In this document: piece after piece, positions 42,324 through 63,799 of the stretch | Position numbering within the stretch: position 1 is the stretch's first letter | How the letters are laid out: each line of letters begins with the position of its first letter | Assembly (NCBI GenBank): GCA_002380425.1 | Contig: DFUR01000048.1 | Span: forward strand, 2,890-66,889 | Direction of reading: 5' to 3' | Length of the DNA: 64,000 nt | Source of the DNA: Bacteroidales bacterium UBA4181 | GTDB taxonomy: Bacteria; Bacteroidota; Bacteroidia; Bacteroidales; UBA4181 | The notes under the pieces: generated by a model | Databases searched by the model: none | What the model was told of the DNA's origin: nothing | The model's input: only the letters and a program-made list of their open reading frames with translations | Translations under genes and position numbers: made by a program

Positions 42324-42346
42324 AAGCAACCTTTAGTAGTAGTGTC

Positions 42347-43898: not shown

Positions 43899-44028
43899 CA
43901 TCACCTGCGAAAATGTTTAAGGTGTTGGCGTTTTTGTAGTACCTTGTATTGCATAGTAATTTATTTTTCTAACTTTGAGGCTGGCTCTGCTGGTGTCAGA
44001 AGTGGAGAAATCAGTAACAATTATTGCG

Positions 44029-44919
44029 GTGAGTATTATTATTGAGGGTTTGACCAAAACCTATCCGAACGGAAATCATGCCCTTAAAGGGATTAACCTC
44101 CAAATTCCCCCCGGAATGTTTGGCTTGCTTGGCCCCAACGGGGCTGGAAAGTCGACGCTGATCCGGATTCTTGTAGCACTTATGGAACCTACAGAGGGAA
44201 AGGTTACCATGTTTGGGCATGACCTGCGCACTCAGAAACAGGAAATCAGGAAGATTCTGGGCTATCTGCCACAGGACTTCCGGTTTTTTGCCCGGTACAA
44301 AACTTATGAATTTCTCGACTATGCTGCCCGCCTTTCGGGGATGAACGACAGCAGGAAGCGCAAATCAGCCGTGGACGCGATGCTGGAGCAGGTGGGGCTG
44401 TACGAGGCCAGGGACCGGTATGCTGCTCGCCTGTCGGGTGGTATGAAGCGTCGCCTCGGTATTGCCCAGGCTTTGATTCATGAACCCAAGATCATTATTG
44501 TGGATGAGCCCACAACGGGTCTGGACCCTGAGGAGCGGATTCGTTTCCGCAACCTGCTTTCGCAGGTGAGTGCCCGGGACGTGTCGATTATTTTGTCAAC
44601 CCACATTGTGGGGGATATCTCCAGCTCTTGTACTTCAATGGCCTTGCTCAACAAAGGCGAAATATCTTTCTTTGGTTCTCCTGAGGAGATGTTGCGCCGT
44701 GCCGAAGGCAAGGTTTGGCTGGTTCGGGTGAGCAACAAAGATTTCAAGGAACTGACCAACAAGTATCCGGTTATTTCTACCATCCCGATTGATGATGGCT
44801 GGGAGGTACAGGTTGTGGCCGAAAAGTTGGATGGTTTCCGTGGAGAGAACATCGTGCCCAATCTGGAGCATGCCTATGTGTATTTTATGGATGCACAGCT
44901 TAACCAGTGGGCTGTATAG
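44029..44919 (+). CDS. ABC transporter ATP-binding protein (NBD1, ABC-2/NatA-like with a C-terminal extension)
   Basis: Walker A GPNGAGKST, Q-loop LGYLPQ, signature LSGGMKRR, Walker B IIIVDEPTTGLD, H-loop STHI. The start is moved from the track's TTG (43975) to the in-frame GTG at 44029, giving (M)SIIIEGLTKTY. Confidence 0.85.
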   Translation: MSIIIEGLTKTYPNGNHALKGINLQIPPGMFGLLGPNGAGKSTLIRILVALMEPTEGKVTMFGHDLRTQKQEIRKILGYLPQDFRFFARYKTYEFLDYAARLSGMNDSRKRKSAVDAMLEQVGLYEARDRYAARLSGGMKRRLGIAQALIHEPKIIIVDEPTTGLDPEERIRFRNLLSQVSARDVSIILSTHIVGDISSSCTSMALLNKGEISFFGSPEEMLRRAEGKVWLVRVSNKDFKELTNKYPVISTIPIDDGWEVQVVAEKLDGFRGENIVPNLEHAYVYFMDAQLNQWAV

Positions 44920-44937
44920 CCGGAACAGATAATTCAG

Positions 44938-47900
44938 ATGTCTATGCTTGTTCTTCACAATATTCTCTCAGTCGCCAAATACGAAAGTAAACTGCTGGTT
45001 CGCAGCTGGTTCTTTAAAGTGTTTTCGACCATTGCGGTGCTGGTTGCATTTGGCTACAGCCTGGGTACACTCAGTGATGCCGGGTCCCCAACCTGGCTGC
45101 TCCGCGCCATCCCTTCGACGATTCCTTACGGGACGCTTATTCTGCTGAATGCCGCGCAGGCGGTGATTGCCATCTTTCTGTCCTCGGAGTTTATCAAGAG
45201 GGACAAGCAGTTGGATACCTCAGAGGTGTTTTATGTGCGTCCGCTCAGCAATGCCGAGTATGTCATCGGGAAAACGTGGGGCAATCTGAGGGTATTTCTG
45301 GGTCTGAATCTGGTGATCCTGCTTATTGCGCTGCTGTTTAATCTAACAGCCAGCAATACATACGTTGACTGGTCGTCCTATCTTGTCTATTTTCTGTTGA
45401 TTAGTGTCCCCACCCTGCTGTTCATCATGGGAATGTCTTTTTGCGCCATGCTGTTGCTGAACAATCAGGCACTCACCTTTGTGGTGATGCTGGGATATGT
45501 GGGCCTGACATTGTTTGTGATTGGCGAGTTGGTGTATCACCTGTTTGACTACATGGCTTTTAGTCTGCCTATGTTCCGTTCCACCATTGTGGGTTTCAGT
45601 GGAATGGAAGAGATTCTGGTGCACCGCGGTATGTATCTGGCTGCTGGAATCGGGTTTATCTGTCTGACGATTTATCTGTTCAAACGATTGCCCCATGCCC
45701 CTCAGAGAAGATTCTGGTGGCTTCTGGTTTCACTGGTGTTCCTGATGGGCAGCGTTTTCCTTGGGTTCCGCTATGTACAGCGTTATGCCTCTGATCTGGA
45801 ACACAGACAGGCCCTGATAGAGCTCAATGATCAGTACGGTGGACTTCCGGTGATGTCGGTTCTGGAGTACAAGATGGATGTGGAGCAGTTGTCGGATGGT
45901 ATTCACGTGCGTTCCCGGATGCTCGCCCGTGCTCTGGACAGTGCCCGGGTATTTGTGTTCACCCTGAACCCGTATCTGGATATTATCTCTGTGAACGCCC
46001 CTCAGGAGCAGGTGCAGATGAAACGGGAACAACAGATTGTTTTGCTCGAGTTCGGACGTGAGATTCCGCGGGGGGACACTCTTATGCTGGAAATGGAGTA
46101 TCGGGGGGGGATTGATCAGTTGCTGTGTTTCCTGGACATTCCTGAGAAGAATCTTTTGGATAAGAATCGGGACAATAACATCAATTTTGCCAAGAGATAC
46201 GCCTTTCACAAGCCGAACTATCTTTTGCTGACTCCTGAATCCTTTTGGTATCCCAGACCAGGGACTGCTTTCAGTACCCGATACACAGGATGGCAGCAGT
46301 CTTTCTTCAGCCATTTTGATGTTTCTGTAAAACCATTGCCCGGCCTGGTACCAGTATCTCAGGGGAAGGTGGATACGCTGTCCGACGGGCGGATTCATTT
46401 CCTTCCTGAGGCTCCGCTCACGGGCCTCTCACTGTCCATTGGTCAATACGACAAGTTGTCTTTCCGGATAGACAGTGTGGATATGGAGTATGCCGTTTAT
46501 TATTTCAAGGGGCATGACTTTTTCACCCGGGGGCTGGATAGTATCAAGAAGGAGATTCCGGGCATCATCCATGAGCGCCGTTTGTCTCTGGAGCGGGACC
46601 TGAAACTTACTTATCCATTCAGGCGCTTTACCCTGGTGGAGGTCCCCGGCCAGTTTGCTGCCTATGCCAGGTCCTGGACTCAGGCACAGGAATGGACCCA
46701 GCCCGAGATGGTTTTTATTCCCGAGATGGCCTATGCCATGAGAGATGCAGAATTTGAACAGCAGGTGAAAATGCGCAGCAGGTTTATGCGGGAGCAGCGT
46801 TCCCTGCAGGATCGTCAGCGGGATGTGCTGAACAACTTTCTATTCAATTTTCAACGAATCAACGGGCGGCCCAACTTCCAGAGGAGCCGGGGTCAGACAT
46901 CCATTCAGCAGACGCCCAATCCATGGTATCAGTTTCCTCAGTTCTACGATTTTACATTCAACCTGTATTCCATTCGCTGGCCTGTGGCCAACCGTCTGGT
47001 GGCATCCTATCTGCAGAACACCAATTCCGGTGTGAACCAATATCAGCGTTCCTTATCCGGGATGTCCCCTGACGAAGAAGCCAGTGTGCTCCTCCAGGAA
47101 CACCCCCTGAGCCGTCTTTTGGCGGATACTGCCTATCGGGACCGGGTGAGCGGTGTGGTTTCGCTCAAGGCCCGCCAACTCTTTGCTTATGGAGAATTGC
47201 TCAAGGGCGAGGAGGATTTCCGCACCGTGGTGTCGAATATTGTCAAGGGAAAACCCTTCCAGAATGTGCGTTTTGAGAGTTTTCTCGGTGAATTGCGTGA
47301 CTCCACAGGGGTGGATATTCTGGACCGGATGGATGCCTGGTTCAACGTGATACAGGTGCCTCGCTATATCATCGGAATCCCCAGAGCCACCCGGGTTCGG
47401 AATGCACAGGAAACCAGGTTTGAAGTAGTGGAACAGATCACCAACAGTTCCGATGTGGAGGGCATTGTTAAGATTTCCCTCCAGTATAGTGGTGGCTGGA
47501 GTGACTCCGAGACCTCCCTGATGTACCTGGCTCCCGGACAGACCAAGGAGATTGTCATGGTGTCCGAAACCGATCCCCGATCCATGGTGATTCAAACCTT
47601 GGTTTCCTTGAACCTGCCTGGCTATGTGGAGCACACATTCTCGCAAGTGGAGCGTCAGCAGCGCAGGGTTCGTGACACCGGACAGTTTGTGGTGCAGAAT
47701 TCGGCTTTGTATGTTCCCGAAGGAGAAATTGTGGTGGATAATGAGGATGAGGACCTGTTCACGGTTACCACGCCCGATGTTACGGGTTTGCTTCAGACCT
47801 GGATGCAAAAAGCAGATGACAAAAAATCCAAGTATTCCGGTTATTCTTATTGGCGGGCTCCGATTCGCTGGACCCTGGTCACCAATTCGGGTTATTACGG

Positions 47901-48291
47901 GCAGTACGTTCGCTCTGCTCATATCATCCGTCCCGGAAATGGTTCCCAGGTGGCTACCTGGAGGGTTCCGCTGAAGGAGAGAGGACGCTATGACGTGTAC
48001 TATTATGCCTATAGAGAGCAGGAAGGCCGGCGCTTTGGCGGTGGTCCCGGTGGTCAGGGAGGACGAGGCGGATTTGGCGGCAGAGGACAACGAGGGGAAT
48101 ATAACCTGAGAATCCGTCAGGGCGCTACCCTGAACGAGCCTGCCTCCATTGAGTTTTGGGGCAGTGCCGGCTGGGTGCTTGTGGGAACCTATATTCTGGA
48201 GGCAGACACAGCGTACGTGGATCTTACCAATAAAGCAGAGATGAATATGAATATTGTCGCCGCCGATGCGGTCAAATTTGTGAAACGATAA
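44938..48291 (+). CDS. Giant ABC-2-type permease: ~7 TM helices (first ~280 aa) fused to an ~830-aa predicted periplasmic region
   Basis: Seven hydrophobic helices fall within aa 25-280. The rest is soluble with no HExxH motif. The C-terminal ~170 aa looks like a beta-sandwich ending ...IVAADAVKFVKR. An internal Gly/Arg tract is present. Confidence 0.7.
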   Translation: MSMLVLHNILSVAKYESKLLVRSWFFKVFSTIAVLVAFGYSLGTLSDAGSPTWLLRAIPSTIPYGTLILLNAAQAVIAIFLSSEFIKRDKQLDTSEVFYVRPLSNAEYVIGKTWGNLRVFLGLNLVILLIALLFNLTASNTYVDWSSYLVYFLLISVPTLLFIMGMSFCAMLLLNNQALTFVVMLGYVGLTLFVIGELVYHLFDYMAFSLPMFRSTIVGFSGMEEILVHRGMYLAAGIGFICLTIYLFKRLPHAPQRRFWWLLVSLVFLMGSVFLGFRYVQRYASDLEHRQALIELNDQYGGLPVMSVLEYKMDVEQLSDGIHVRSRMLARALDSARVFVFTLNPYLDIISVNAPQEQVQMKREQQIVLLEFGREIPRGDTLMLEMEYRGGIDQLLCFLDIPEKNLLDKNRDNNINFAKRYAFHKPNYLLLTPESFWYPRPGTAFSTRYTGWQQSFFSHFDVSVKPLPGLVPVSQGKVDTLSDGRIHFLPEAPLTGLSLSIGQYDKLSFRIDSVDMEYAVYYFKGHDFFTRGLDSIKKEIPGIIHERRLSLERDLKLTYPFRRFTLVEVPGQFAAYARSWTQAQEWTQPEMVFIPEMAYAMRDAEFEQQVKMRSRFMREQRSLQDRQRDVLNNFLFNFQRINGRPNFQRSRGQTSIQQTPNPWYQFPQFYDFTFNLYSIRWPVANRLVASYLQNTNSGVNQYQRSLSGMSPDEEASVLLQEHPLSRLLADTAYRDRVSGVVSLKARQLFAYGELLKGEEDFRTVVSNIVKGKPFQNVRFESFLGELRDSTGVDILDRMDAWFNVIQVPRYIIGIPRATRVRNAQETRFEVVEQITNSSDVEGIVKISLQYSGGWSDSETSLMYLAPGQTKEIVMVSETDPRSMVIQTLVSLNLPGYVEHTFSQVERQQRRVRDTGQFVVQNSALYVPEGEIVVDNEDEDLFTVTTPDVTGLLQTWMQKADDKKSKYSGYSYWRAPIRWTLVTNSGYYGQYVRSAHIIRPGNGSQVATWRVPLKERGRYDVYYYAYREQEGRRFGGGPGGQGGRGGFGGRGQRGEYNLRIRQGATLNEPASIEFWGSAGWVLVGTYILEADTAYVDLTNKAEMNMNIVAADAVKFVKR
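48025..48096 (+). repeat. Gly/Arg-rich low-complexity tract (GRRFGGGPGGQGGRGGFGGRGQRG) within the giant permease
   Basis: Direct translation of 48025-48096 in the ORF frame. Confidence 0.9.
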
Positions 48292-48305
48292 AGACACCTA
48301 CCTTT

Positions 48306-49793: not shown

Positions 49794-49801
49794 TTATCAT
49801 T

Positions 49802-50878: not shown

Positions 50879-50885
50879 CCGGGAT

Positions 50886-53800
50886 ATGAGAAAGGTTGTA
50901 CAATTTGCCGTGAACAATCCCGTCACGATCACTATGATCGTGCTGGCGGTATTGCTCCTGGGCTTTATCTCCTATGATAAGTTGGGTATAGATTTGCTAC
51001 CCAACCTAAATAACCCCAGACTGTTCGTGGAGATCAAGGCCGGTGAAAGCCCTCCCGAGGAGATTGAATCACAGTATGTCCAGAACATTGAGGCGTTGGC
51101 CATCCGTCAGCGCGATGTGGTGAAGGTGTCTTCCATTGTTCGCGCCGGTGCTGCTCAGATCATGGTTGAGTTTGCCTGGAACAAGGATATGGACGAGGCT
51201 TTCCTGGATTTACAGAAGGCTTTGAATAATGCCTCGGCTGGACTGGATGAGTTGAATATTACCCAGCATGATCCCAATATGTCCCCCGTTGTGCTGGTTT
51301 CCATGAGTCATGCCGAAATCAGGGATATGGCAGAGCTGCGTAAAGTGGCTGAGAGCTATGTCCGCAATGAGTTGATTCGTATTGAGGGAATTGCTGATGT
51401 GCAACTCTCCGGTGAAGAGGTTACCGACCTGGTGATTGAAACAGATCCCTACCGTCTGAAGGCGTTCAACCTGACAATGGATGAACTGGCTTCGCGTATT
51501 GAAAGCGCCAACCGGAATCTCACGGGAGGGCGTGTGAGTGAGTACGGAGTGCAGTATATTGTCAAGGGGGTGGGTTTGTTAACCGACACGAAGGATTTTG
51601 ATAACCTTATTGTGGGTTACCGTGCCGTGCAGGCTGGAACTACAACCGCTCAGGCTGCCGGAGGGCAGAATATGGCGCCCGTTTTTCTGCGTGAGGTGGC
51701 CAATGTGCGTTTTGAGAACAAGCGCCCGGAAAGCATTGTCCGGATGAACGGTCAGCGGTGCATTGGTTTGTCTGTTTACAAGGAAACCCGCTACAACACG
51801 GTGCAGGCGGTCAACGAAGTGGTTGCTGAACTCGCCAATATCTCCAAGGCCTTACCCGGTTATTCGTTCAATGTGGTCACCAACCAGGGAGCGTTTATCA
51901 ACAATGCCATCGGTGAAGTGAAGGATACCGCGGTGCTGGGGATTGTTCTGGCGGTACTGGTACTCTTTGTATTCCTCCGGAGGGTGGGCACTACCCTGAT
52001 TATCAGTGTTGCTATTCCCGTTTCGATTGTGGCTACATTCAACCTGATGTATTTTAATGACCTCACTCTGAATATTATGACCCTGGGTGGTCTGGCGTTG
52101 GGGGCTGGTATGCTGGTGGATAATGCCATTGTGGTCATCGAGAATATTGTCCGGAATCACGAACGGGGGTTACCTCCGCAGGAGGCCGCTGTCACCGGTG
52201 GTCACGAGGTATCCGGAGCGGTGATTTCGTCCACGTTGACCACCATTGTGGTCTTTCTGCCCATTGTTTACCTCCACGGGGCTTCCGGGGAGTTGTTCAA
52301 GGATCAGGCCTGGACGGTTGCTTTTTCCCTGTTGTCTTCCCTGGTTGTGGCACTGTTGGTGATACCCACCCTGTATTATCGGGTGTACAAGTCCAAACAC
52401 CACAATAGTACGGAGCAAAAAACAGTTCATCTCAAGGGCTACGGTCAGTTTGTGAAACGGATTCTGCCTTATCGATGGCCGGTAATCTTTATCGCTTTGG
52501 CCTTGATGGCTGTGACAGCGTTGATTGTGCCTTCTATCGGTACGGAATTTATGCCTAAGGCTGAATCCGAGTCCCTGAATATCTCCATCAAGTTGCCCGA
52601 GGGAAGCCGCCTGGAGCGCACCCAGGGCGTTGTGGAAACCATGGAGCAGTTGTTGAAATCAACGGTGGGGGACAGTATGGATATATACTCCCACATTGGT
52701 CCCAACAGCGGAACGGTTAACTCAGTATTTGAAGGGGAGCATACAGCTCTGATCCGGGTGCATTTTTTTGGGAGCAGCGGAGCTGCTCAGCGGGTGATTG
52801 CCGCTTTCTCTGAGTATGCGAACAATGTGGAAGGCTTGCAGATTTCTTTCAAACAGGATGATTCTGCCCTCAGTTCCTTACTTGGGACCGAATCAGCCCC
52901 TGTGGTTGTGGAAATCAAGGGAGAGGATCTGGATAAACTTGAGGAAATTGCCGGAGTCGTCCGGCAGCGTATGGACAGCATTCAGGGCCTGTACAATGTC
53001 ACCTCTTCGATTGAGGACGGAGCTCCCGAAGTTGAGATTTTGTTAGACAGGACCCGGACCGGTATGGAGAACCTCAGCCTTTCTGCTGTGGTGGGGCAGG
53101 TGCAGCAGCAACTTACCGGTCGTGAGAGCGGACAGTTGGATTATTCCGGTGAGATGCGGGATATCATCATTCGTGTTCCCGAGAAAGATCTGGCTTCGCT
53201 CCCCGGGATGATCATCAGGGTGGGACAGCGGGAATATCGTCTGGAAGAGTTGGCACAGATACGCACATCTGTGGCTCCGGGAGAGATCTTCAGGAGGAAC
53301 CAGAGCCGTATTGCCCAGATTTCTGCAGACCTTGCTTCTTCGGTGAGTTTGGGACAGATGGCTTCGAGGATAGAGCAGACCATGGAGGATATCGAGTTGC
53401 CTCCAAATTATCAGATTTCGGTAACCGGGCAGGAAGAGCAAAGGCGTGATGCCATGAGCAATCTGCTTTTTGCCCTGATGTTGTCCGTGGTGCTGGTGTA
53501 CATGGTGATGGCGTCCCAGTTTGAGTCCCTGTTGCATCCGTTCACCATTCTGTTGACGATTCCGCTGGCAGTGGTCGGAGCCATCCTTATGTTCTGGTTT
53601 ACCGGAACGACCATCAATATTATGGGTGTGATTGGTATGGTGATGCTGGTGGGGATTGCGGTCAATAATGCTATTATTCTGGTGGACCGAATCAATCAGA
53701 TCAAACGTACCGGAGTGGAACTTCCTGAAGCCATTGCGCAGGCGGCTCAGCAGCGTATTCGTCCCATTCTGATGACCAGTCTTACCACTATTCTGGCTCT

Positions 53801-53975
53801 TTTGCCACTGGCCCTTGGGGCAGGTGAGAGTGCGGAGTTGCGTTCTCCTATGGCCTTAGCTGTGATCGGAGGATTGTTCACATCTACGGCCCTTACTCTG
53901 GTTGTCATTCCCTGTGCCTATTCCCTGATGGAAGGCCTGAAGCGCTTATTTGTCAGAACACCCGCAGAGAATTAA
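50886..53975 (+). CDS. Efflux RND transporter permease (RND1, AcrB/SwrC-like)
   Basis: 1029 aa with 12-TM/2-loop architecture. TM4 motif GMLVDNAIVVIEN and TM10-11 motif GIAVNNAIILVD. Confidence 0.95.
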   Translation: MRKVVQFAVNNPVTITMIVLAVLLLGFISYDKLGIDLLPNLNNPRLFVEIKAGESPPEEIESQYVQNIEALAIRQRDVVKVSSIVRAGAAQIMVEFAWNKDMDEAFLDLQKALNNASAGLDELNITQHDPNMSPVVLVSMSHAEIRDMAELRKVAESYVRNELIRIEGIADVQLSGEEVTDLVIETDPYRLKAFNLTMDELASRIESANRNLTGGRVSEYGVQYIVKGVGLLTDTKDFDNLIVGYRAVQAGTTTAQAAGGQNMAPVFLREVANVRFENKRPESIVRMNGQRCIGLSVYKETRYNTVQAVNEVVAELANISKALPGYSFNVVTNQGAFINNAIGEVKDTAVLGIVLAVLVLFVFLRRVGTTLIISVAIPVSIVATFNLMYFNDLTLNIMTLGGLALGAGMLVDNAIVVIENIVRNHERGLPPQEAAVTGGHEVSGAVISSTLTTIVVFLPIVYLHGASGELFKDQAWTVAFSLLSSLVVALLVIPTLYYRVYKSKHHNSTEQKTVHLKGYGQFVKRILPYRWPVIFIALALMAVTALIVPSIGTEFMPKAESESLNISIKLPEGSRLERTQGVVETMEQLLKSTVGDSMDIYSHIGPNSGTVNSVFEGEHTALIRVHFFGSSGAAQRVIAAFSEYANNVEGLQISFKQDDSALSSLLGTESAPVVVEIKGEDLDKLEEIAGVVRQRMDSIQGLYNVTSSIEDGAPEVEILLDRTRTGMENLSLSAVVGQVQQQLTGRESGQLDYSGEMRDIIIRVPEKDLASLPGMIIRVGQREYRLEELAQIRTSVAPGEIFRRNQSRIAQISADLASSVSLGQMASRIEQTMEDIELPPNYQISVTGQEEQRRDAMSNLLFALMLSVVLVYMVMASQFESLLHPFTILLTIPLAVVGAILMFWFTGTTINIMGVIGMVMLVGIAVNNAIILVDRINQIKRTGVELPEAIAQAAQQRIRPILMTSLTTILALLPLALGAGESAELRSPMALAVIGGLFTSTALTLVVIPCAYSLMEGLKRLFVRTPAEN

Positions 53976-53985
53976 CACCGGACCC

Positions 53986-56900
53986 ATGAATGTTTTGATC
54001 AACAGAAAGGTAACCATTTTCATGCTGTTTCTGAGCATTACCCTGCTCGGGTATGTCTCATACAAACAGTTGAAAGTCGAGCTTCTCCCAAATGCGGAGC
54101 TGCCCATGCTGTACGTTCAGGTTAATGCCCGGACCGAGATGGATCCGGCCTACCTGGAATCGCAGGCGGTGATGTATCTTGAAGGCGTCATAACCACCAT
54201 GAGTGGTGTGGAAGAGGTGGAGTCGCTTATCAACACCCGGAACGCGACCATCACGGTTAGTTTCAAACAGAACGTCAATTTCAACTATATCTATCTGCAA
54301 CTGCAGGAGCGCATCAAGGAGGCTTCTGTGCAGCTTCCGGAGGAATTCACTGTGAACCTTTCCCGCGGGAATTCGGTGTCTATGACCAGCAATTTCATGT
54401 CCTTGCAGGTTCTGGGTTCCGGAGGAGTGGACCGGGTTCGTAGCTTGTTTGACGAGGAGGTGCTCGAGGATCTGGAAAATATCGAGGGGATTGCCGCTGT
54501 ATCTGTGTTTGGCGGCCGTCAGAAAACCATTGAGGTTCAGATGAACCGGGAAATGTGTGAGGCCCTGAACCTGACCCCTTCGCGTCTTCAGAGCATCATT
54601 ACTCAGAATAGTCAGGGACGTACCTATGTGGGCAATGCAGAGGAGAGTTTCCGTCAGTATTTTGTGTATGTTCAGTCGGAATACAAGCATGTGACCGATA
54701 TTGAAAATATCGTGGTTGCTCCCGGTCCTATTCTTCTCAAGGATGTGGCCAATGTGTTTTTTGATGTCAAGGATGAGACCAATATCAGCCGGGTCAACGG
54801 TAAAGAAGAAATCTCCGTTTCTCTGATCAATGATTCCCAGGCCAATATGATTGACCTCTCTGACAGGGTACTGGCAGCCATTGAACGGATCAACCAAAAG
54901 ATGAAACCCCTGGATGTGGAGTTGGTTGTGCAGAGCAACGCTGCTGAGGAGATTGAGGAAAACATCGGAAATATTGTTCAGACGGCTCTGTTAGGAGGGT
55001 TGCTCGCCATCTTTGTGCTCTGGGTGTTTCTCAGGAATCTCCGGCTGGTAGTGTTGATTGCTGTTTCGGTGCCCATCTCAATCTTTTCGGCCTATAATTT
55101 CTTTTACGCCTTTGGCGTTACCATCAACAGCCTCACCCTGATCGGGATGGCTCTGGCCGTGGGGATGCTGCTCGATTGCAGTATTGTTGTTCTGGAGAAT
55201 ATATACAGGCTGGCTTCCCAGGGAAATCCGCCGGATAAGGCGGTAACCCAGGGTACCCGGGAGGTATGGCGGTCTATCGTAGCTTCAACGCTCACTACTG
55301 TGGTGGTGTTTGCACCGTTCATTTTCTCGGACAACTATCTGATTGAACTTTTGGGCCTTCAGATAGGGGTGTCTATCATCTCCACTCTGGTTCTTGCCAT
55401 GTGTGTGTCGTTGTTGTTCACACCCATGCTTGCTCATTTGATTTTGTTGGGGCGCAGTCGCAGGAATGCCTTGTTTCAGACGGTATCCATTCGGCAGAAG
55501 GTTGTGCAGCGTTATTTGGTGATTCTCAAGGCCTGTATGAGGCGCCCTGTACCTACCATTCTGGGAGGAGTGATTTTGTTGGTTGTTTCCGTACTTCTGG
55601 CCCTTTCGGTGAGTATTACAAGTATGCGCCAGGTAGATACGGACCGCTTCAATATTTCCGTGCAACTGCGTCAGGGAACGACCCTTGAGGCTACCGATCA
55701 GGTGGTGCTTTCGTTGGAACAGTCCATTGACTCCATTGCCGAGATCAAGGATGTTGTATCCCGTATTCAGGAGGCTGAGGCGGTGATTACCGTGATTCTC
55801 AAAGAAGATTACGAAAAGATTGCCAAGCGCAGTATGTCGGTCATCCGTCAGGATGTGGAGGACCGTGTACGGACTGTGTCCTCTGCCGAAATCAATGTTT
55901 CTCAGGCTACCGGGGGCGGAGGCGGAGCTTCTGCAGGTGCTGTTTCCGGAATGATGAACCTCATGCGTCTGCTGGGTATCGGGGAAAACAGTGAGCGGAT
56001 TATCCTCAAAGGCAGAGATTTTGAACTCATGCAGTCCGTTGCTACCGATATCCGGTATTATCTGGATGAACTGGAGTCGGTACAGTATTCCCGGATTTCT
56101 TCCACTGGAAACCGGCCCGAAGTGCATCTTACCTTTGATCAGGAGTTGCTGAATCAGTATGGAATCACGCAAGCCAACCTGTCTTCAGAACTGGCCTCAG
56201 TGAGCAATGTGTCCTCTTCGGGTGCTCGTATGACATTGGGGGATGAAGAATACGATATTCTGATTCGTCAGTATTTGGAGGATGAGGAGGAGGAACAATC
56301 ACAGGCACAGACAAAAAACCTGACCGACTTAAAAAACACCATGATTCGCAGTCAATCGGGGGGGATTCATCAGCTCCAGAGTATTGCGGGGGTGAATATG
56401 GCCACGGGTAAATCCTCCATCAGGAGGTTGAATCAGGAAAAACTTATAGAGATTTTTTATTCGTTCCCTCAGGAAACACAGGAGTCTAAGGAATTGCTGG
56501 AGTCGTACCGTCTGGAGATCGACCAGCTCATTGCTGGCTATCCGTTGCCAGCGGGGATTGCCATTGAAGTGGTGCATGAAGAGGATCTCTTCGCTGATTT
56601 CAAGTTCCTGATTCTTGTTGCTTTTGTGTTGATCTACATGATCATGGCGGTGGTGTTCGAGTCCTTCTTTACCCCCTTCGTGCTGATGTTCTCTATCCCG
56701 CTGGCGGCCATCGGTTCGCTGCTGGCCCTGGTTGTTACCGGGAACAGCCTGCTGAGTGCCAATACGCTCATAGGGTTTATTATTCTGTTGGGTGTGGTGG
56801 TGAATAACGGGATTATTCTGATAGATTATTCCAATATTCTCCGTAGCAGGGGCTATCGCCGTACCCGTGCTCTGCTGACCTCGGGACTTGCCCGGTTGCG

Positions 56901-58686
56901 TCCTATTCTGATTACGTCCATCACTACCATTGTGGCCCTGCTGCCCATGGCCTTGGGTGAGAGCGGATATGCCGGGATGATAGGTGGTCCTTTTGCCGTA
57001 ACGGTGATTGGGGGGCTTGCCTGTTCATCGTTGCTCACCCTGATATTTGTGCCCACGGTGTATATCTCCCTGGAGAATGCGCTGGATTGGTACAAAACCC
57101 TGAGTGTGAAGATGAAGTTGTTCCATCTTTTGCTGTTCCTGTTCGGGGTGTATCTGATTGTCACACGGATTGAAGGTATTCTTTCCCAGGCTGGTTATCT
57201 GGTATTGCTTGCGGTGGTCATCCCTGCGGTTACGTTCTTTGTTCGTACCAGTCTGCGCAGAGCTGATACCAAATTGATCCCCGAGGAGGAGCCCATTCGT
57301 ATCACTATCAGTAATTTGGTGAAGATTTACGACCGTTCCGGAAGTTTCCTCCGTGAGTGGAAGGCCGGAGATGCACTTCGCGCCCGGCTGGGCCTGAAGG
57401 AAGAATACCACTCGCTGCGGGATTTTGGCAGTCTGGTGTGGCAGTTGCCTCTGCTGGGTTTCCTGATCTATTTTGCCTATTTCTATCTGGACCACAAGTT
57501 CTGGACCTATGTCCTTTCTTTTGTGGTGTTCGTGTTCGTCCGCACTCTTTGGGGAATGATGCGTTCGTGGCTGGAGTACCATCGTGGAACTCCAAAATGG
57601 CTGAATCGCCTGGATCGGATGGTCTTCTGGGGTGTGCCCCTGATTCTTACTGTGGTGATTTTCTCCAAATGGGACAATCCGGGTATGTCCACTCTGGCAG
57701 CCTTCTCATGGTTCCTGATGTTGGGTATCTACGCCACTTCCGATTATCTCTACTCCCGGGAAATCAATATTGACCGTATCGAAGGCCGTATGGCCGGTCT
57801 GCGCAGAGCTCTTGCGCGGTTGGTGAAGACCATTCCTGTTCTGGGCAAACGTCGTCAGCCCTTCAAAGCTCTCAAAGGGGTATCCTTTGAAATCAATACC
57901 GGTATGATTGGCTTGCTGGGCCCCAATGGTGCGGGCAAATCGACTTTTATGCGCATCATTTGCGGCATTCTGGACCAGAGTTACGGTAAAATATGGATCA
58001 ACGGATACGATACAGAACGCTACCGCGAGGAGTTGCAGTCACTAATCGGCTTCCTGCCTCAGGAGTTTGGTATGTATGAGCATATGAGCGCTGAGAGTTT
58101 TCTGGATTTTATGGCCATTCTCAAGGGGATCACCAATCCTGAAACCCGTGCACAACGCATTGAGTATGTCCTCAAATCGGTGCATATGTACGAGAAGAAG
58201 GATCATAAAATTTCTTCCTTCTCCGGTGGTATGAAACAACGAATTGGTATTGCACTGATTCTGCTTCATCTCCCCAGAATTCTTGTGGTGGATGAGCCCA
58301 CTGCCGGCCTGGACCCCAGAGAGCGTATCCGTTTCAGGAATCTGCTGGTCGAACTCAGCCGCGACAGGATTGTGATCTTTTCTACCCATATCATTGAGGA
58401 CATTGCCAGTTCGTGTAATCAGGTCGTGGTCATCAATAAGGGAGACCGGAAGTATTTCGGCAATCCTCGAGAGATGGTGCATCTGGCTTCGGGCAAGGTT
58501 TGGGTGTTTACGATGGACTTAGAGACCTTTGAAGCACTGCCCGATATGTCGCTGGTGGTTCATCATGTACAGGAAGGCAATCAGGTCAGGGTGCGTTATA
58601 TTTCGCGCACACAGCCTGCTCCGGGAGCGGTTCTGGTGGAACCAAACCTCGAAGATGCCTATTTGTGTTTACTGAAGAATATCTGA
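53986..58686 (+). CDS. Fusion protein: complete RND permease (RND2), 2 TM, then an ABC ATPase (NBD2) carrying a 4-TM insertion
   Basis: One uninterrupted frame of 1566 codons. RND motifs are GMLLDCSIVVLEN and GVVVNNGIILID. The C-terminal part has Walker A GPNGAGKST, Q-loop IGFLPQ, signature FSGGMKQR, Walker B ILVVDEPTAGLD and H-loop STHI. The start is set at the ATG at 53986, 10 nt after the RND1 stop. Confidence 0.85.
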   Translation: MNVLINRKVTIFMLFLSITLLGYVSYKQLKVELLPNAELPMLYVQVNARTEMDPAYLESQAVMYLEGVITTMSGVEEVESLINTRNATITVSFKQNVNFNYIYLQLQERIKEASVQLPEEFTVNLSRGNSVSMTSNFMSLQVLGSGGVDRVRSLFDEEVLEDLENIEGIAAVSVFGGRQKTIEVQMNREMCEALNLTPSRLQSIITQNSQGRTYVGNAEESFRQYFVYVQSEYKHVTDIENIVVAPGPILLKDVANVFFDVKDETNISRVNGKEEISVSLINDSQANMIDLSDRVLAAIERINQKMKPLDVELVVQSNAAEEIEENIGNIVQTALLGGLLAIFVLWVFLRNLRLVVLIAVSVPISIFSAYNFFYAFGVTINSLTLIGMALAVGMLLDCSIVVLENIYRLASQGNPPDKAVTQGTREVWRSIVASTLTTVVVFAPFIFSDNYLIELLGLQIGVSIISTLVLAMCVSLLFTPMLAHLILLGRSRRNALFQTVSIRQKVVQRYLVILKACMRRPVPTILGGVILLVVSVLLALSVSITSMRQVDTDRFNISVQLRQGTTLEATDQVVLSLEQSIDSIAEIKDVVSRIQEAEAVITVILKEDYEKIAKRSMSVIRQDVEDRVRTVSSAEINVSQATGGGGGASAGAVSGMMNLMRLLGIGENSERIILKGRDFELMQSVATDIRYYLDELESVQYSRISSTGNRPEVHLTFDQELLNQYGITQANLSSELASVSNVSSSGARMTLGDEEYDILIRQYLEDEEEEQSQAQTKNLTDLKNTMIRSQSGGIHQLQSIAGVNMATGKSSIRRLNQEKLIEIFYSFPQETQESKELLESYRLEIDQLIAGYPLPAGIAIEVVHEEDLFADFKFLILVAFVLIYMIMAVVFESFFTPFVLMFSIPLAAIGSLLALVVTGNSLLSANTLIGFIILLGVVVNNGIILIDYSNILRSRGYRRTRALLTSGLARLRPILITSITTIVALLPMALGESGYAGMIGGPFAVTVIGGLACSSLLTLIFVPTVYISLENALDWYKTLSVKMKLFHLLLFLFGVYLIVTRIEGILSQAGYLVLLAVVIPAVTFFVRTSLRRADTKLIPEEEPIRITISNLVKIYDRSGSFLREWKAGDALRARLGLKEEYHSLRDFGSLVWQLPLLGFLIYFAYFYLDHKFWTYVLSFVVFVFVRTLWGMMRSWLEYHRGTPKWLNRLDRMVFWGVPLILTVVIFSKWDNPGMSTLAAFSWFLMLGIYATSDYLYSREINIDRIEGRMAGLRRALARLVKTIPVLGKRRQPFKALKGVSFEINTGMIGLLGPNGAGKSTFMRIICGILDQSYGKIWINGYDTERYREELQSLIGFLPQEFGMYEHMSAESFLDFMAILKGITNPETRAQRIEYVLKSVHMYEKKDHKISSFSGGMKQRIGIALILLHLPRILVVDEPTAGLDPRERIRFRNLLVELSRDRIVIFSTHIIEDIASSCNQVVVINKGDRKYFGNPREMVHLASGKVWVFTMDLETFEALPDMSLVVHHVQEGNQVRVRYISRTQPAPGAVLVEPNLEDAYLCLLKNI
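57334..57864 (+). other. ~177-aa membrane insertion (4 predicted TM helices) between NBD2 strand beta-1 and the Walker A strand
   Basis: ITISNLVKIYD (matches NBD1 IIIEGLTKTYP) is separated from KALKGVSFEINTGMIGLLGPNGAGKST (matches NBD1 HALKGINLQIPPGMFGLLGPNGAGKST). The intervening segment contains LVWQLPLLGFLIYFAYFYL, FWTYVLSFVVFVFVRTLWGMM, MVFWGVPLILTVVIFS and LAAFSWFLMLGIYATSDYL. Confidence 0.75.
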
Positions 58687-58688
58687 GT

Positions 58689-59396
58689 ATGAAGAAGAAT
58701 CAATTATTTCAAATCCTGTTGCCCCTGATGAGGTACAATCTGAAGGTGATTTTTGCCGGGAAGTTTGTCTGGTTCTTTCTGGCTGCCCTTGGATTTTTTG
58801 TGTTCTTCATGATCAACAATGTCTGGCAGGGAAATCTGATCAATGAGGCACTGATGTACGAGATTCTGTTCTTCCCGGGGGTACTTCTTATTTTCTATCC
58901 CTCCGTTTATGGGATACAGAACGATGAAGATGCCCGTATTCTGGAAATCCTTTTCGGAATTCCCAATTATCGTTACAAGGTGTGGCTGTTTCGTCTCTTG
59001 ATGGTGTATCTGATCTTTTTTTGCTTTCTGGTGCTGTTTGCCTGGATCGGGACTTTCCTGCTGTTCCCAGTTCCCCAGTTTGAAATGGCCGGTCAGTTGA
59101 TGTTTCCCTTGTTGTTTCTGGGAAATATGGCCTTTATGATGTCCACCTGGGTGCGCAGCGGTAATGCGACGGCTGTCATCATGATTATCGTCGGGATCCT
59201 GATGGTCGTACTGACCAGTGCCTTTGGGCTGAAATGGTGGAACATTACCCTCAATCCGTTTGAGGTCCCCGAGAACTTGCATGTGGTTATCTGGGCCGGA
59301 TACCTGACTAAGAGCCGGATCTTTCTGGCTGTGGGCAGTGTGGTGTTCTTACTCATTGGTCTGCTCAATCTACAGAAACGGGAACGTTTTGTGTGA
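58689..59396 (+). CDS. Six-TM membrane protein, probable ABC-2-type permease partner
   Basis: 235 aa and very hydrophobic, with ~6 helices. The ATG lies 2 nt after the fusion gene's stop. Family assignment rests on context only. Confidence 0.6.
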   Translation: MKKNQLFQILLPLMRYNLKVIFAGKFVWFFLAALGFFVFFMINNVWQGNLINEALMYEILFFPGVLLIFYPSVYGIQNDEDARILEILFGIPNYRYKVWLFRLLMVYLIFFCFLVLFAWIGTFLLFPVPQFEMAGQLMFPLLFLGNMAFMMSTWVRSGNATAVIMIIVGILMVVLTSAFGLKWWNITLNPFEVPENLHVVIWAGYLTKSRIFLAVGSVVFLLIGLLNLQKRERFV

Positions 59397-59787: not shown

Positions 59788-60081
59788 ATGGACGAGAGGC
59801 ATTCAATAAGAATCAATATCGCTGAACGCTACTATCCGCTCAAAATAGATAAAGAAGAAGATGAGGAGCGCCTTCGGAAGGCAGCTGTGCTGATCAATGA
59901 TCGGTTAGGTAGTTACCGGCAGCGCTACTCTGATAAAGATGTTCAGGATTTGCTGGCCATGGTGGCACTGCAGTTTGTGGTCCGGCTGCTTGAACTGGAA
60001 AGAAAAAGCGATTCTTCCATGGTGGAAGGGCAACTCAGGGAGTTGACGCAAACTGTGGATGAGTTTTTAAACCAGATATAA
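59788..60081 (+). CDS. zapA: Cell division protein ZapA
   Basis: IRINIAERYYPLKIDKEEDEERLRKAAVLINDRL...AMVALQFV is the typical ZapA pattern; 97 aa. Confidence 0.85.
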   Translation: MDERHSIRINIAERYYPLKIDKEEDEERLRKAAVLINDRLGSYRQRYSDKDVQDLLAMVALQFVVRLLELERKSDSSMVEGQLRELTQTVDEFLNQI

Positions 60082-60104
60082 TCGTTCTTTTACATAAGAA
60101 GAGT

Positions 60105-60306
60105 TCGCCCGCATAGCTTCTTCAATCCTTCTGAAACTCAACACTAATCTAATTGGAGTTGAACTTTGGTTACGTAGGACAGGCCTAGTACCGGTCACCC
60201 CGGGATTCCGATTCGTCGGAACGTTGGAAGTTCAAAATAACTGGTCACTCCACCCATGTTACATCGGGTTTTCATTAAAGTTTGTCGGTAGCTATGCGGG
60301 TTTTTT
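60105..60306 (+). ncRNA. Structured ~200-nt RNA between zapA and rny (6S RNA candidate, or an rny leader element)
   Basis: Nested helices: an 11-bp closing stem CCCGCATAGCT/AGCTATGCGGG (60108-60118 / 60290-60300) followed by T6; an 8-bp helix TTGAACTT/AAGTTCAA (60159-60166 / 60228-60235); and an apical 6-bp hairpin with a UUCG loop (60206-60221). There is no ORF. Confidence 0.5.
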
Positions 60307-60328
60307 ATAACCATTATATATCCCCTTT

Positions 60329-61861
60329 ATGTCACTAATTATCTATATAACCATTGCTTTTATTGCCGGGGCCGGGCTTGCCTACCTGTTGTACGGGTAC
60401 GTGCTTACCTCCCGGAAGGAGCAGATGCTCAGGGAGGCGCAGGCTGAGGCCGAAGCCCTGAAGAAGAGCCGGATGCTCGAAGCCAAGGAACACTTCCTTC
60501 AGCTGAAGGCCGAACACGAGAATGTATCCAACGAAAGAAATGCCCGGATCTCCCAGTCAGAAAACCGTATCAAGCAAAAAGAAGTAGCGATTGCACAAAG
60601 GATCGAGGACTTGCAACGCCAAAAACGGGATTTGGAGGTTGCGCGTGAAAACCTAGCCAATCAGGTTAAACTGGTAGAGAAAAAACAGGAAGAAACTGAA
60701 GCTCTTCATCGACAGCAAATTGAGCATCTGGAACGTATCTCCGGACTCTCTGCAGCTGAAGCCAGAGCCCAGATGGCTGATTCGCTTAAAGCCGAAGCTA
60801 AATCGGAGGCTATGTCTTACATCAATGAGGTGATGGATGAGGCCAAGATGACTGCATCCAAGGAAGCCAAGAGCATCGTCATCAAGACCATCCAGAGGGT
60901 GGCAACTGAGACAGCCGTGGAGAACTCGGTTACGGTGTTCCCCATCGAAAGTGACGAGATCAAGGGCAGGATTATCGGGCGGGAAGGACGTAATATTCGT
61001 GCGCTCGAGGCTGCTACCGGAGTTGAGCTTATTGTGGATGATACCCCCGAGGCCATTATTCTCTCTGGTTTTGACCCTGTTCGCAGGGAGGTGGCCCGCT
61101 TGTCACTCCATCAGCTTGTTACGGATGGACGCATCCATCCTGCCCGAATAGAGGAGGTGGTAGCCAGAATTCAGAAACAGGTTGAAGAGGAAGTCGTAGA
61201 GGTCGGGAAGAGGACTACCATTGACCTGGGAATCCATGGTCTGCACCCCGAACTGGTACGTCTCATCGGTAAAATGAAATACCGCTCTTCGTACGGACAG
61301 AACTTATTGCAGCACTCCCGGGAGGTGGCCAATCTTTGTGCCATTATGGCCGCTGAGGTTGGCCTGAACGCCAAGATTGCCAAACGTGCCGGTCTGCTTC
61401 ATGATATTGGAAAGGTTCCCGATGACGAACCCGAATTGCCGCACGCTGTACTGGGAATGAAACTTGCGGAGCGATATAAGGAAAAACTGGAAATCTGTAA
61501 TGCCATTGGGTCGCATCATGAGGAAACAGAGATGACCAGTCTCTACGCTCCTATTGTGCAGGTTTGCGATGCTATCTCCGGAGCCCGTCCCGGAGCCCGT
61601 CGGGAAGTAGTAGAAGCCTATATCAAGAGGTTAAAAGAGCTTGAATCGCTGGCTTTGTCCTATCCCGGTGTGACCAAAACTTACGCTATTCAGGCTGGGA
61701 GAGAGCTCAGAGTTATTGTGGGGAGCGAAAAAGTGACCGACCGTGATGCTGAGAGCCTCTCGTATGATATTGCCAAGAAGATTCAGGATGAAATGACCTA
61801 CCCGGGCCAGGTTAAGATTACGGTGATCCGGGAAACCCGTGCGATTAGTTACGCAAAATAA
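60329..61861 (+). CDS. rny: Ribonuclease Y
   Basis: N-terminal TM, long coiled coil, KH domain ([15 protein letters not shown]), HD domain (LLHDIGK...GSHH). Confidence 0.95.
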
Positions 61862-61864
61862 CAC

Positions 61865-63799
61865 GTGTCACGCAAAACCATTTATTTGACGGCAGGAATA
61901 CTCTCTGTATTCCTGCTGCTTTGTCTGCTGGCCAGAACAGTAGTGCCATCTGTCGTACTCAAACAGGTTCAATCCTCTGTTTATCAACGGACAGGGTGCA
62001 CTCTTTCCTTCGATGATTTCCGAATTCAGGGGCTGGCGACTGCTTCTTTCTCCGGCCTCAGAATGGTTTCTGCCGGGGGGGATACCATTGTGTATGCAGC
62101 AGAACTTCAGGCTCGCCCTGCAATCTGGTCCCTGCTCGGTGGACACCTGTCCCTCAAGCGGGTTCACGTGTCCACGCTCCGGGCCCGGTTCACCCGCTCC
62201 TTTCTCCGGGATATGTCCGGAGATGATTCCAGCGCAGATTCCTTACTGGTGGCAAGCCCTGATGCTTATTCGCTGCAGAACTTGTCTTCATCCATGTACA
62301 AGACCTTTGAACGGTTTTTCCCGGAAGAACTATTACTCGAACAGTGTGCTATTGCCTATACATCCGATAGCCTGTTGCCCTTTGTTGCCTGTGATACATT
62401 TGCACTCCGTGAAGGTGTCTTCCGGGGTAGTGTGACTTTTGGGGATGTGCACACCAGCTCGCATTTGGTGCTTGAGGGTTCGGCTCACGATGGCGAACCG
62501 GTACATTGCTCTGTCCATGGAGTGGAGGGGCCGTTTCGTCTGCCCTATGTAACATCGCGCTGGAATATCGACTCTGGTTTTGATACCTTGAACTTTTCGG
62601 TGCGTGTTCGCAATACAAGGGCTGCGACTGAAGTGTCCGGATCTTTCTCCGGCCGCAATGTCTATCTCTTTCATACAGACGTGTCTCCTGATACCATCAG
62701 AGTTGGCAGCGGTGGGTTGGATTTTCTATGTCATATTCGGGGTAGCGAGATGGAGCTGGATAGTCTGTCGGTGGTGCACCTCAATGGGTTTCGCTTCTCT
62801 CCTCATTTGCGTTACCAGCATGGTCCGGATCGGTCTGTTGAGCTGAATATCCCATCTTTTGACTTTGACGCCTCCACTTTGCTCAAAGCGCTCCCTCGGG
62901 GGCTATTTCAGAGTTTTTCCGGTCTTCAGACCGAAGGGCGACTGGCATATCGTTTGCATTGTTTTGTCCCCTTTAACCGTCTGGATTCGCTGGAGTTCAG
63001 TTCCAATCTGGATGCGCGGGGTTTTCGCATCGTTCGTTTCGGAGAGGTGAATCCCTATATGTTGCGCGATTCATTCTATCATCAGGTGTACGAAAGGGGA
63101 CGACTTGTGGCTGCTTTCCCGGTATACAGAGGCAGCCCCCGGTATGTTCCTTTGGAACTTATTTCAGATTATCTCACCGATGCCGTTCTAACCTCAGAGG
63201 ACGGGAGTTTTTTTTACCACCGGGGATTCAATGAGGAAGCATTCCGGGACGCTTTGGCCCTGAATCTTAAAAAGCGCCGTTTTGTCCGCGGTGCCAGTAC
63301 CATCACCATGCAGCTGGTGAAGAACGTATTTCTGACCCGACAGAAGACGCTTTCCCGAAAACTTGAAGAAGTGGCCTGGGTTTGGATGATAGAGAATCTG
63401 GGGATACTGGACAAACATCGTATGCTGGAGGTGTACTTCAATATCGTTGAGTGGGGGCCAGGTATCTACGGCATTCGGGATGCAGCCCAGTTCTATTTCA
63501 ACAAGGCGCCCTCGGCGTTGACGCTCTCGGAGTGTATCTATCTGTCCATGCTGCTGCCACGTCCCAAACAATACGTGTATTTCTTTGATGATCAGGGAAA
63601 CCTGAGGCCCTCTCTGGCAGCCTACATCCCTGTAGCCGTTCGCATCATGCTTCACAGGGAGTGGATTGCCGCCACTGACACGCTCAATCTGGTGCGGGAC
63701 ATCCGTTTGTCCGGTCCGGCAGCGGCACAGCTACGTGTGGTCCAGGATACAATTATTCCTGATAGTACACTCTTTTTACCCGTGGTGAGATTCCCGTAA
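61865..63799 (+). CDS. GT51 peptidoglycan glycosyltransferase domain protein with a ~430-aa N-terminal extension
   Basis: GTG start and an N-terminal TM. The C-terminal GT51 motifs are EDGSFFYHRGF, GASTITMQLVKN, RKLEE and LEVYFNIVEWG. Confidence 0.8.
   Translation: MSRKTIYLTAGILSVFLLLCLLARTVVPSVVLKQVQSSVYQRTGCTLSFDDFRIQGLATASFSGLRMVSAGGDTIVYAAELQARPAIWSLLGGHLSLKRVHVSTLRARFTRSFLRDMSGDDSSADSLLVASPDAYSLQNLSSSMYKTFERFFPEELLLEQCAIAYTSDSLLPFVACDTFALREGVFRGSVTFGDVHTSSHLVLEGSAHDGEPVHCSVHGVEGPFRLPYVTSRWNIDSGFDTLNFSVRVRNTRAATEVSGSFSGRNVYLFHTDVSPDTIRVGSGGLDFLCHIRGSEMELDSLSVVHLNGFRFSPHLRYQHGPDRSVELNIPSFDFDASTLLKALPRGLFQSFSGLQTEGRLAYRLHCFVPFNRLDSLEFSSNLDARGFRIVRFGEVNPYMLRDSFYHQVYERGRLVAAFPVYRGSPRYVPLELISDYLTDAVLTSEDGSFFYHRGFNEEAFRDALALNLKKRRFVRGASTITMQLVKNVFLTRQKTLSRKLEEVAWVWMIENLGILDKHRMLEVYFNIVEWGPGIYGIRDAAQFYFNKAPSALTLSECIYLSMLLPRPKQYVYFFDDQGNLRPSLAAYIPVAVRIMLHREWIAATDTLNLVRDIRLSGPAAAQLRVVQDTIIPDSTLFLPVVRFP

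Follow-up and report, generated by a model that had tools for sequence, protein, structure and literature searches.

A conserved RND-ABC fusion protein in which predicted membrane helices split the ABC ATPase fold between strands beta1 and beta2

We analyzed a 64,000-nucleotide stretch of DNA from Bacteroidales bacterium UBA4181 (GenBank assembly GCA_002380425.1, contig DFUR01000048.1, positions 2,890 to 66,889 of the forward strand; hereafter the window) and identified an open reading frame (ORF) at window positions 53950-58686, + strand, that encodes an RND permease and an ABC ATPase in one protein of 1578 amino acids. ABC ATPases are a much-studied fold and are treated as compact soluble cassettes. 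In this protein, which we call RND2::NBD2 after its permease domain (RND2) and its nucleotide-binding domain (NBD2), a full RND permease is followed by two extra transmembrane (TM) helices, a strand resembling beta1 of ABC ATPases, and a four-helix membrane insertion that leads into an otherwise complete ABC ATPase. This split-ATPase feature is real, conserved, and unusual; for a fold divided by four membrane helices, the support is good from the sequence comparisons and moderate from structure prediction. Taking the explanation as a whole, we think it probable that the ORF encodes one 18-helix inner-membrane protein whose ATPase is catalytically intact but interrupted between beta1 and beta2; less certainly, this protein would be part of a composite ABC-2/RND exporter.

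We numbered the residues of the fusion protein from nucleotide 53950. The likely start codon is the ATG at 53986, because the preceding gene has its stop at 53975. A Pfam search of the ORF found both domains in the single protein, with ACR_tran (PF00873) matching residues 14-1041 (528 bits; E 4.1e-158; profile positions 3-1020 of 1021) and ABC_tran (PF00005) matching residues 1308-1452 (101 bits versus a cut-off of 25). An earlier note on this DNA had proposed that the ATPase is interrupted, and its coordinates and quoted segments were all located within this one ORF. The features of the fusion, and of the ordinary ATPase of the same operon (NBD1) that served as a paralogue and internal control, are as follows.

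53986..57081, + strand: RND (AcrB-family) permease domain of RND2, residues 13-1044, 12 TM helices (Pfam ACR_tran)
57112..57249, + strand: TM13 (about residues 1055-1073) and TM14 (about 1083-1100), a hairpin between the RND C terminus and beta1 (hydropathy, AlphaFold2)
57295..57333, + strand: displaced beta1 and A-loop aromatic residue, IRITISNLVKIYD, residues 1116-1128, including Tyr1127 (AlphaFold2, splice scan, alignment)
57343..57864, + strand: 174-residue insertion, residues 1132-1305, with a basic amphipathic helix, four TM helices, a basic helix, and a linker (excision test)
57442..57756, + strand: TM helices of the insertion, H1 (57442-57486), H2 (57496-57585), H3 (57595-57672), and H4 (57679-57756) (AlphaFold2, hydropathy)
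57865..58686, + strand: rest of NBD2, from beta2 to the C-terminal domain, with the stop codon (Pfam ABC_tran)
57919-57945, + strand: Walker A of NBD2
58054-58068, + strand: Q-loop of NBD2
58219-58242, + strand: signature of NBD2
58279-58314, + strand: Walker B and D-loop of NBD2
58381-58395, + strand: H-loop of NBD2
43975..44919, + strand: NBD1, an ordinary soluble ABC ATPase with a contiguous beta1-beta2 hairpin (Pfam ABC_tran, 116 bits)

The hydropathy profile has two hydrophobic segments ahead of the beta1-like segment, at the positions of TM13 and TM14, and four after it (about residues 1162-1180, 1186-1204, 1224-1240, and 1248-1268), matching the six extra TM helices that the earlier note had counted. 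The segment KALKGVSFEI, with which NBD2 resumes, begins at residue 1306 (nucleotide 57865), and the Walker A motif GPNGAGKST occupies residues 1324-1332. Between D1128 and K1306 there are exactly 177 residues, as against 3 (NGN) at the equivalent place in NBD1, so that the previously estimated spacing of about 177 residues with four hydrophobic segments was accurate. ABC ATPases have a contiguous beta1-beta2 hairpin; in NBD2, 174 residues and four helices lie between the two strands.

From ALKG onward NBD2 is 41% identical to NBD1, but a BLASTP comparison of the two did not report the 13-residue beta1 match. Because beta1 lies outside the Pfam ABC model and a match this short escapes BLASTP, we built a splice scan. 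We made a hidden Markov model from 42 ordinary ABC ATPases, comprising the closest nonfused relatives from the genome scan described below and NBD1; each 15-residue segment of the 330 residues upstream was then joined to the ATPase core and scored in 32 family members. The beta1-like segment, lying 179-217 residues upstream, was the best splice partner in all 32, adding 8.9 to 15.7 bits with a z-score of 5.6-12.2 (median, 9.7) relative to other segments of the same protein. The best unrelated segment added 5.7-11.9 bits, and the one that natively adjoins the ATPase core merely 1.3-3.6 bits. When residues 1132-1305 were excised, the protein aligned without gaps to the canonical ABC ATPase profile from position 9 (ITISNLVKIYDRSGKALKGVSFEINTGMIGLLGPNGAGKST versus lkienlsktykngvkalkevsleiksGvlGLlGpnGaGkst).

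After excision of the insert, Tyr1127, which is 178 residues upstream of beta2, aligned with the canonical K.Y position. We equate it with the A-loop aromatic residue, which in ABC ATPases stacks on adenine; without the distal segment, NBD2 would have no such residue. In an alignment of 35 sequences, the beta1 segment has invariant L, V, K, and Y residues. Full-length NCBIfam ATPase models matched NBD2 from about profile position 15 and NBD1 from position 2; by model, the matches in NBD2 started at position 15 of GldA and position 5 of DrrA, and those in NBD1 at positions 2-5 of the two. The proposed homology of ITISNLVKIYD to strand beta1 is thus borne out by the splice scan, the invariant residues, and the gapless alignment. 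After H4 there is also a second, weaker beta1-like motif, INIDRIEGR (57763-57789; family consensus NI.RI.GRF), in which AlphaFold2 assigned no strand.

We ran AlphaFold2 on residues 1045-1578 (534 amino acids) with the 35 aligned sequences. The model has a mean predicted local distance difference test score (pLDDT) of 80 and a predicted TM score (pTM) of 0.55. Its elements are listed below in model numbering, to which 1044 is added to obtain the protein residue.

9-29 and 33-62: helices TM13 and TM14
74-81: beta-strand ITISNLVK (protein residues 1118-1125, 8 residues, DSSP)
88-102 and 112-118: helices
121-135, 139-168, 172-197, and 200-225: four long helices of the insert, pLDDT about 85-90
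238-250: helix LRRALARLVKTIP
269 onward: strands and helices of the ATPase

The segment that adjoins beta2 in the chain was modeled as helix and coil, with no strand. Every predicted strand other than 1118-1125 belongs to the ATPase or its C-terminal domain, and since a DSSP strand needs a partner, we infer that beta1 docks onto the ATPase. The structure prediction thus agrees with the strand proposed by the earlier note, and docking on the ATPase sheet would follow from the strand assignment. A Foldseek search with the 534-residue model matched the ATPases TM_1403, NosF, and LptB and the nucleotide-binding domains of ABCA proteins; these local alignments (about 270 columns, targets of 285 amino acids) evidently begin at beta2 and are uninformative on beta1.

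The topology of the extra helices was examined over 32 orthologues. Family-averaged hydropathy in 15-residue windows gave the same arrangement of two plus four peaks, at 1.9-2.6, with the insert helices at 1.9-2.6 and TM13/TM14 at 2.3; TM13 and TM14 both scored as hydrophobic in 31 of the 32 sequences. Lysine plus arginine (K+R) residues averaged 14.2 per sequence in the beta1-bearing loop, 3.5 between H2 and H3, and 11.0 between H4 and beta2, and at most 0.6 in the three short hairpin loops. In AcrB the C terminus of the RND permease is cytoplasmic; from this and the positive-inside rule, beta1 and beta2 would both be cytoplasmic with two periplasm-facing hairpins between them, and the even number of helices likewise brings both insertion junctions to the same, cytoplasmic side. 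The positive-inside pattern is clear and puts the two junctions on the cytoplasmic side. The linkers from beta1 to H1 and from H4 to beta2 are about 36 residues each, basic, partly helical, and cytoplasmic. Linkers of this length on both sides do not suggest rigidity, which speaks against the idea in the earlier note that the ATPase is held rigidly under the RND domain.

The TM13-TM14 hairpin (57112-57249) resembles the H1-H2 hairpin (57442-57585; hhalign probability 89%, E 2.3e-6, 36 columns). This similarity hints that the insert may have grown through hairpin duplication, although false positives arise easily when hydrophobic helices are compared. We rejected an internal duplication of TM14 with beta1 against H4 with INIDRIEGR, for which the probability was only 0.8%.

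Apart from the interruption, NBD2 carries the Walker A motif, the Q-loop, the signature, Walker B with its catalytic glutamate, the D-loop, and the H-loop. The motifs GPNGAGKST, LPQE, FSGGMKQR, ILVVDEPTAGLD, and STHII are intact and are conserved across the 35 aligned sequences. Judged by these motifs, NBD2 is a catalytically intact ABC ATPase. It scored below the NCBIfam cut-offs for GldA (TIGR03522; 177.5 versus 402.6 bits) and DrrA (TIGR01188; 167.1 versus 312.45 bits).

We scanned one genome per species with the 534-residue C-terminal part as the query. About 35 loci matched over the entire query, and 31 of these encode the fusion in one ORF of 1565-1616 codons from stop to stop; among them are the complete Marivirga tractuosa genome and an isolate, Parabacteroides massiliensis. 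The fusion occurs in three phyla, Bacteroidota, Calditrichota, and Latescibacterota. It was found in the Bacteroidales (Proteiniphilum, Parabacteroides massiliensis, Bacteroides sp. 224, and Rikenellaceae), the Marinilabiliales (Draconibacterium, Prolixibacter, Mariniphaga, and Maribellus), and the Cytophagales (Marivirga) and, outside the Bacteroidota, in metagenome-assembled genomes (MAGs) of one member of the Calditrichaceae and two Latescibacterota. Across the family, 168-206 residues separate the beta1 tyrosine from the K of KALKG. A search of 1.84 billion representative proteins with the insert alone matched 72 clusters and returned no donor protein or alternative context for the insert; the full-length representatives, of 1550-1585 amino acids, bear it at about residues 1114-1300, and the remainder are fragments of the same architecture. 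Many of the shorter database entries are contig fragments or broken gene calls, and homologues are named only "efflux RND transporter permease subunit" or "ATP-binding cassette domain-containing protein."

The permease half of the fusion aligned to the structures of MdtB, MdtF, and AcrB, is 31% identical to the second RND permease of the operon (RND1), and has a hydropathy pattern that agrees with the 12 TM helices of RND permeases. The proton relay of AcrB (D407, D408, K940, R971, and T978) is incomplete in RND2: TM4 carries D-C, which is D-N or D-S in relatives, and the residue of TM10 at the K940 position is Asn, while the R.RP...T motif (R971/T978) is retained. This altered pattern at the two sites (55168-55191 and 56794-56817) is invariant in the RND2 family, and RND1 shows the same pattern (D-N/N). 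Proton coupling of RND1 and RND2 may therefore differ from that of AcrB on the basis of these residues. We rejected the altered relay as specific evidence that RND2 is ATP driven, because RND1 shows it too and carries no ATPase. RND2 also has, in its periplasmic part, a glycine-rich loop, ATGGGGGASAGAVSG (55906-55950), that RND1 lacks; in metagenomes, many homologues are called as genes that start just past this loop, suggesting that assemblies or gene calls break at the G-rich stretch.

The fusion gene is the sixth of seven genes in an operon at 43975-59396. After NBD1, which is listed above, the other genes are as follows.

44938..48291, + strand: BIGPERM, 1117 amino acids, with one six-helix ABC-2-like domain (first 280 amino acids) and an extracytoplasmic part of about 840 amino acids
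48306-49793, + strand: outer-membrane factor (Pfam OEP)
49802-50878, + strand: periplasmic adaptor (Pfam HlyD_D23)
50886-53975, + strand: RND1, the second RND permease (Pfam ACR_tran)
58689..59396, + strand: SMALL, a six-helix membrane protein of 235 amino acids, likely the ABC-2-type membrane partner of NBD2

This order (NBD1, BIGPERM, outer-membrane factor, adaptor, RND1, RND2::NBD2, and SMALL) is conserved in about 30 genomes or loci from the three phyla. The operon holds exactly two ATPases, two single ABC-2-like membrane domains, two RND paralogues, one adaptor, and one outer-membrane factor. BIGPERM gave a weak Pfam match to ABC2_membrane_2 and a Golvesin_C match (E 3.8e-9), and its six hydropathy peaks are confined to residues 19-277. 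The nonmembrane region of about 840 residues that follows these helices ends in the Golvesin_C-like domain. Where the closest ordinary ATPases are encoded elsewhere, a BIGPERM-like protein of 1100-1240 amino acids is all that follows them.

Of the 29 loci that reach past the fusion, 28 have SMALL directly downstream. The full-length SMALL family aligned with residues 1-262 of the BIGPERM family (hhalign probability 70%, E 4.9e-6). An AlphaFold2 model of SMALL (pLDDT 79.5, pTM 0.77) had type V ABC membrane domains as its first 36 Foldseek matches, with ABCG2, PmtCD, NosY, ABCG25, CcmB, and ABCA1 among the proteins matched, at TMq values of 0.4-0.62 (0.5-0.62 for the top matches) and weak E values of 0.04-0.7. 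These results point to SMALL, not the extra helices of the fusion, as the likely membrane partner of NBD2. The SMALL family is large, with 5281 database hits at E up to 0.001; neither Pfam nor NCBIfam has a model for it, and nearly all of its entries are labeled hypothetical.

The earlier note had read the six extra helices as an ABC-2-type membrane domain. In this alternative, which we regard as unlikely, TM13-14 and H1-H4 would form the membrane domain of a half-transporter belonging to NBD2 itself, with beta1 in its first cytoplasmic loop. The helix count is indeed six, and beta1 and a conserved amphipathic helix lie between helices 2 and 3. The coupling helix of ABC-2 and type V membrane domains occupies this position. 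Foldseek alignments of the 534-residue model to ABCA4 and ABCA7 also extend over about 500 columns, but at a root mean square deviation of about 20 Å they carry no information on the helices. The two-plus-four-helix region compared with the operon's ABC-2 permease families (BIGPERM and SMALL) gave an hhalign probability of 0.1%, and Pfam at E values up to 10 gave no match for the insert, for this region, or for SMALL. In addition, a dedicated six-helix, ABC-2-like protein is conserved directly downstream, and the likeness between TM13-14 and H1-H2 is better explained by duplication of a hairpin than by an ABC-2 ancestry. We therefore do not retain that assignment; the best explanation of the six helices is a family-specific anchor or adaptor rather than the transport domain of NBD2.

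The remaining alternatives concern beta1, the insert, and the ORF itself. ITISNLVKIYD could be a relic or a chance match outside the ATPase fold, with the ATPase either lacking a canonical beta1 or using the segment next to beta2 or INIDRIEGR. The short match went unreported by BLASTP, second-best splice partners reached 5.7-11.9 bits, and the native adjoining LVKTIP is superficially like the LTKTYP of NBD1. We nonetheless find this quite unlikely: the distal segment won in 32 of 32 members at the homologous position, its LVK.Y is invariant over three phyla, the A-loop aromatic residue would otherwise be missing, and AlphaFold2 predicts a strand for the distal segment and a helix for the adjoining one, which is worth only 1.3-3.6 bits. 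That the four hydrophobic segments are a soluble or peripheral helical domain, like an enlarged version of the regulatory insertion of CFTR, seems to us very unlikely. H1 and H3 do fall under a simple hydropathy threshold in some members, but the family-averaged peaks reach 1.9-2.6, the 1- to 3-residue loops are nearly devoid of K and R compared with 11-14 per sequence in the flanks, and the predicted helices are 15-30 residues long, of high confidence, and located right after TM13 and TM14, which clearly span the membrane, in an integral membrane protein. An assembly or frameshift artifact that merged separate RND, membrane protein, and ATPase genes has a negligible chance of being correct. 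Many database homologues are shorter than 931 amino acids and start in the middle of the RND domain, and the gene is split on one long-read contig; against this, the ORF is uninterrupted in 31 independent genomes, including isolates and a complete chromosome, and lengths of 1550-1585 amino acids occur in 14 of the representatives listed, each of which represents one cluster at 50% identity. The split contig breaks the neighboring RND gene as well, which indicates errors of that assembly. On the same grounds (the intact ORF in 31 genomes and the broken neighbor gene), we rejected a naturally split RND permease as the origin of the homologues under 931 amino acids.

Several observations weigh against the interrupted-ATPase, composite-exporter interpretation that we prefer. 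A per-sequence hydropathy threshold detected all four insert helices in just 18 of the 32 members, owing to the lower hydrophobicity of H1 and H3. The conservation that the earlier note had asked to see in orthologues thus holds for the insertion, which is present in three phyla with four averaged peaks, but by this threshold not for every helix in every sequence. The pLDDT around beta1 is moderate (75, then 58), the pTM of the 534-residue model leaves relative domain placement uncertain, and docking of beta1 on the ATPase sheet is a prediction drawn from secondary structure and confidence. INIDRIEGR was the second-best splice partner in a few family members. The evidence for SMALL as an ABC-2 domain is moderate, given the weak Foldseek E values and the hhalign probability. 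Pairing of NBD1 with NBD2, the stoichiometry, and hand-over of the substrate to the RND component are proposals. RND permeases are normally proton driven and trimeric, and ABC ATPases are ATP driven and dimeric; how a trimeric pump and a dimeric transporter would assemble is not obvious.

In the explanation that we prefer, beta1 would fold back on the ATPase sheet, so that the ATPase would be anchored to the membrane at two points. In the proposed composite exporter, the fusion and its inserted helices would hold an ABC-2 transporter against an RND heteromer. Using ATP, the ABC-2 transporter would take its substrate from the cytoplasm or the inner leaflet and would then hand it to the duct formed by the RND, adaptor, and outer-membrane proteins. 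The single tethered NBD2 might pair with free NBD1. The composite ABC-2/RND exporter, including its stoichiometry, pairing, and hand-over, is read from the parts list of the operon and is less certain than the split ATPase. More speculatively, and we would sooner doubt than assert it, the system could be a new class of envelope-spanning exporter in which a heterodimeric ABC-2 transporter (NBD1 with BIGPERM and NBD2 with SMALL) is covalently tied to an RND heterotrimer through the 18-helix subunit, and the ATPase fold threaded through the membrane mechanically links ATP-driven extraction to RND expulsion.

The closest known parallel to the insertion is in CFTR, where the regulatory insertion of NBD1 (residues 404-435, about 30 residues) sits between strands 1 and 2, the same beta1/beta2 site (PMC2217481). 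When CFTR was cut at this insertion and residues 1-414 and 433-1480 were coexpressed, the channel still gated normally (PMC2217481), and beta1 can therefore come from a distance. The CFTR insertion is soluble and largely disordered and carries a protein kinase A site. The insert of the fusion is not a short, soluble, disordered, phosphoregulated segment of this type; it is six times longer (174 residues), conserved, and made of four membrane-type helices predicted at a pLDDT of 85-90. The earlier note pointed to no described ABC ATPase with a membrane insertion at this position. Our search of the literature likewise found no description of a transmembrane insertion in an ABC ATPase or of an RND-ABC fusion, but the site of insertion does have a precedent in CFTR (PMC2217481).

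NBD2 otherwise resembles the DrrA/GldA/NosF-type ATPases, including NBD1, with which it shares the SGGM variant of the signature and a C-terminal domain; its best NCBIfam and Foldseek matches are GldA, DrrA, TM_1403, and NosF. Those ATPases are soluble proteins of about 300 amino acids with 3-5 residues between beta1 and beta2, whereas NBD2 is split and fused behind an RND permease. The RND components are like AcrB and MdtBC in their full-length ACR_tran domain, in the adjacent adaptor and outer-membrane factor, and in the tandem paralogues with 31% identity, as in MdtB/MdtC. They differ in having D-C or D-N in place of D407-D408 and Asn at K940, and we found no RND permease described as bearing an ATPase. 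MacAB-TolC also combines an ATP-driven inner-membrane component with an adaptor and an outer-membrane factor, and MacB is an intact ATPase fused to membrane helices (PMC8277102). In MacB, however, the ATPase is N-terminal to a four-helix FtsX-type domain, its fold is uninterrupted, and there is no RND domain.

If the interpretation is correct, the ABC ATPase fold tolerates an excursion through the membrane at its beta1/beta2 hairpin, and it can receive beta1, along with the residue that stacks on ATP, from a position about 180 residues distant. It is also unusual for an RND permease and an ABC ATPase to be covalently joined, and the fusion raises testable questions about energizing, assembly, and the hand-over of substrate from the inner to the outer membrane. 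The fusion family is confined to the Bacteroidota and neighboring phyla and is generically annotated, and one of its partner proteins belongs to no defined family.

The operon is flanked upstream (37818-43762) by a 1501-amino-acid ORF and a 471-amino-acid protein with Fer4_20 and Pyr_redox_2 domains that looks like a glutamate synthase small subunit. Downstream (59788-63799) are small coiled-coil ORFs, a 510-amino-acid RNase Y-like protein, and a 644-amino-acid protein. The flanking genes look like housekeeping genes, which suggests that the operon is chromosomal rather than carried on a mobile element.

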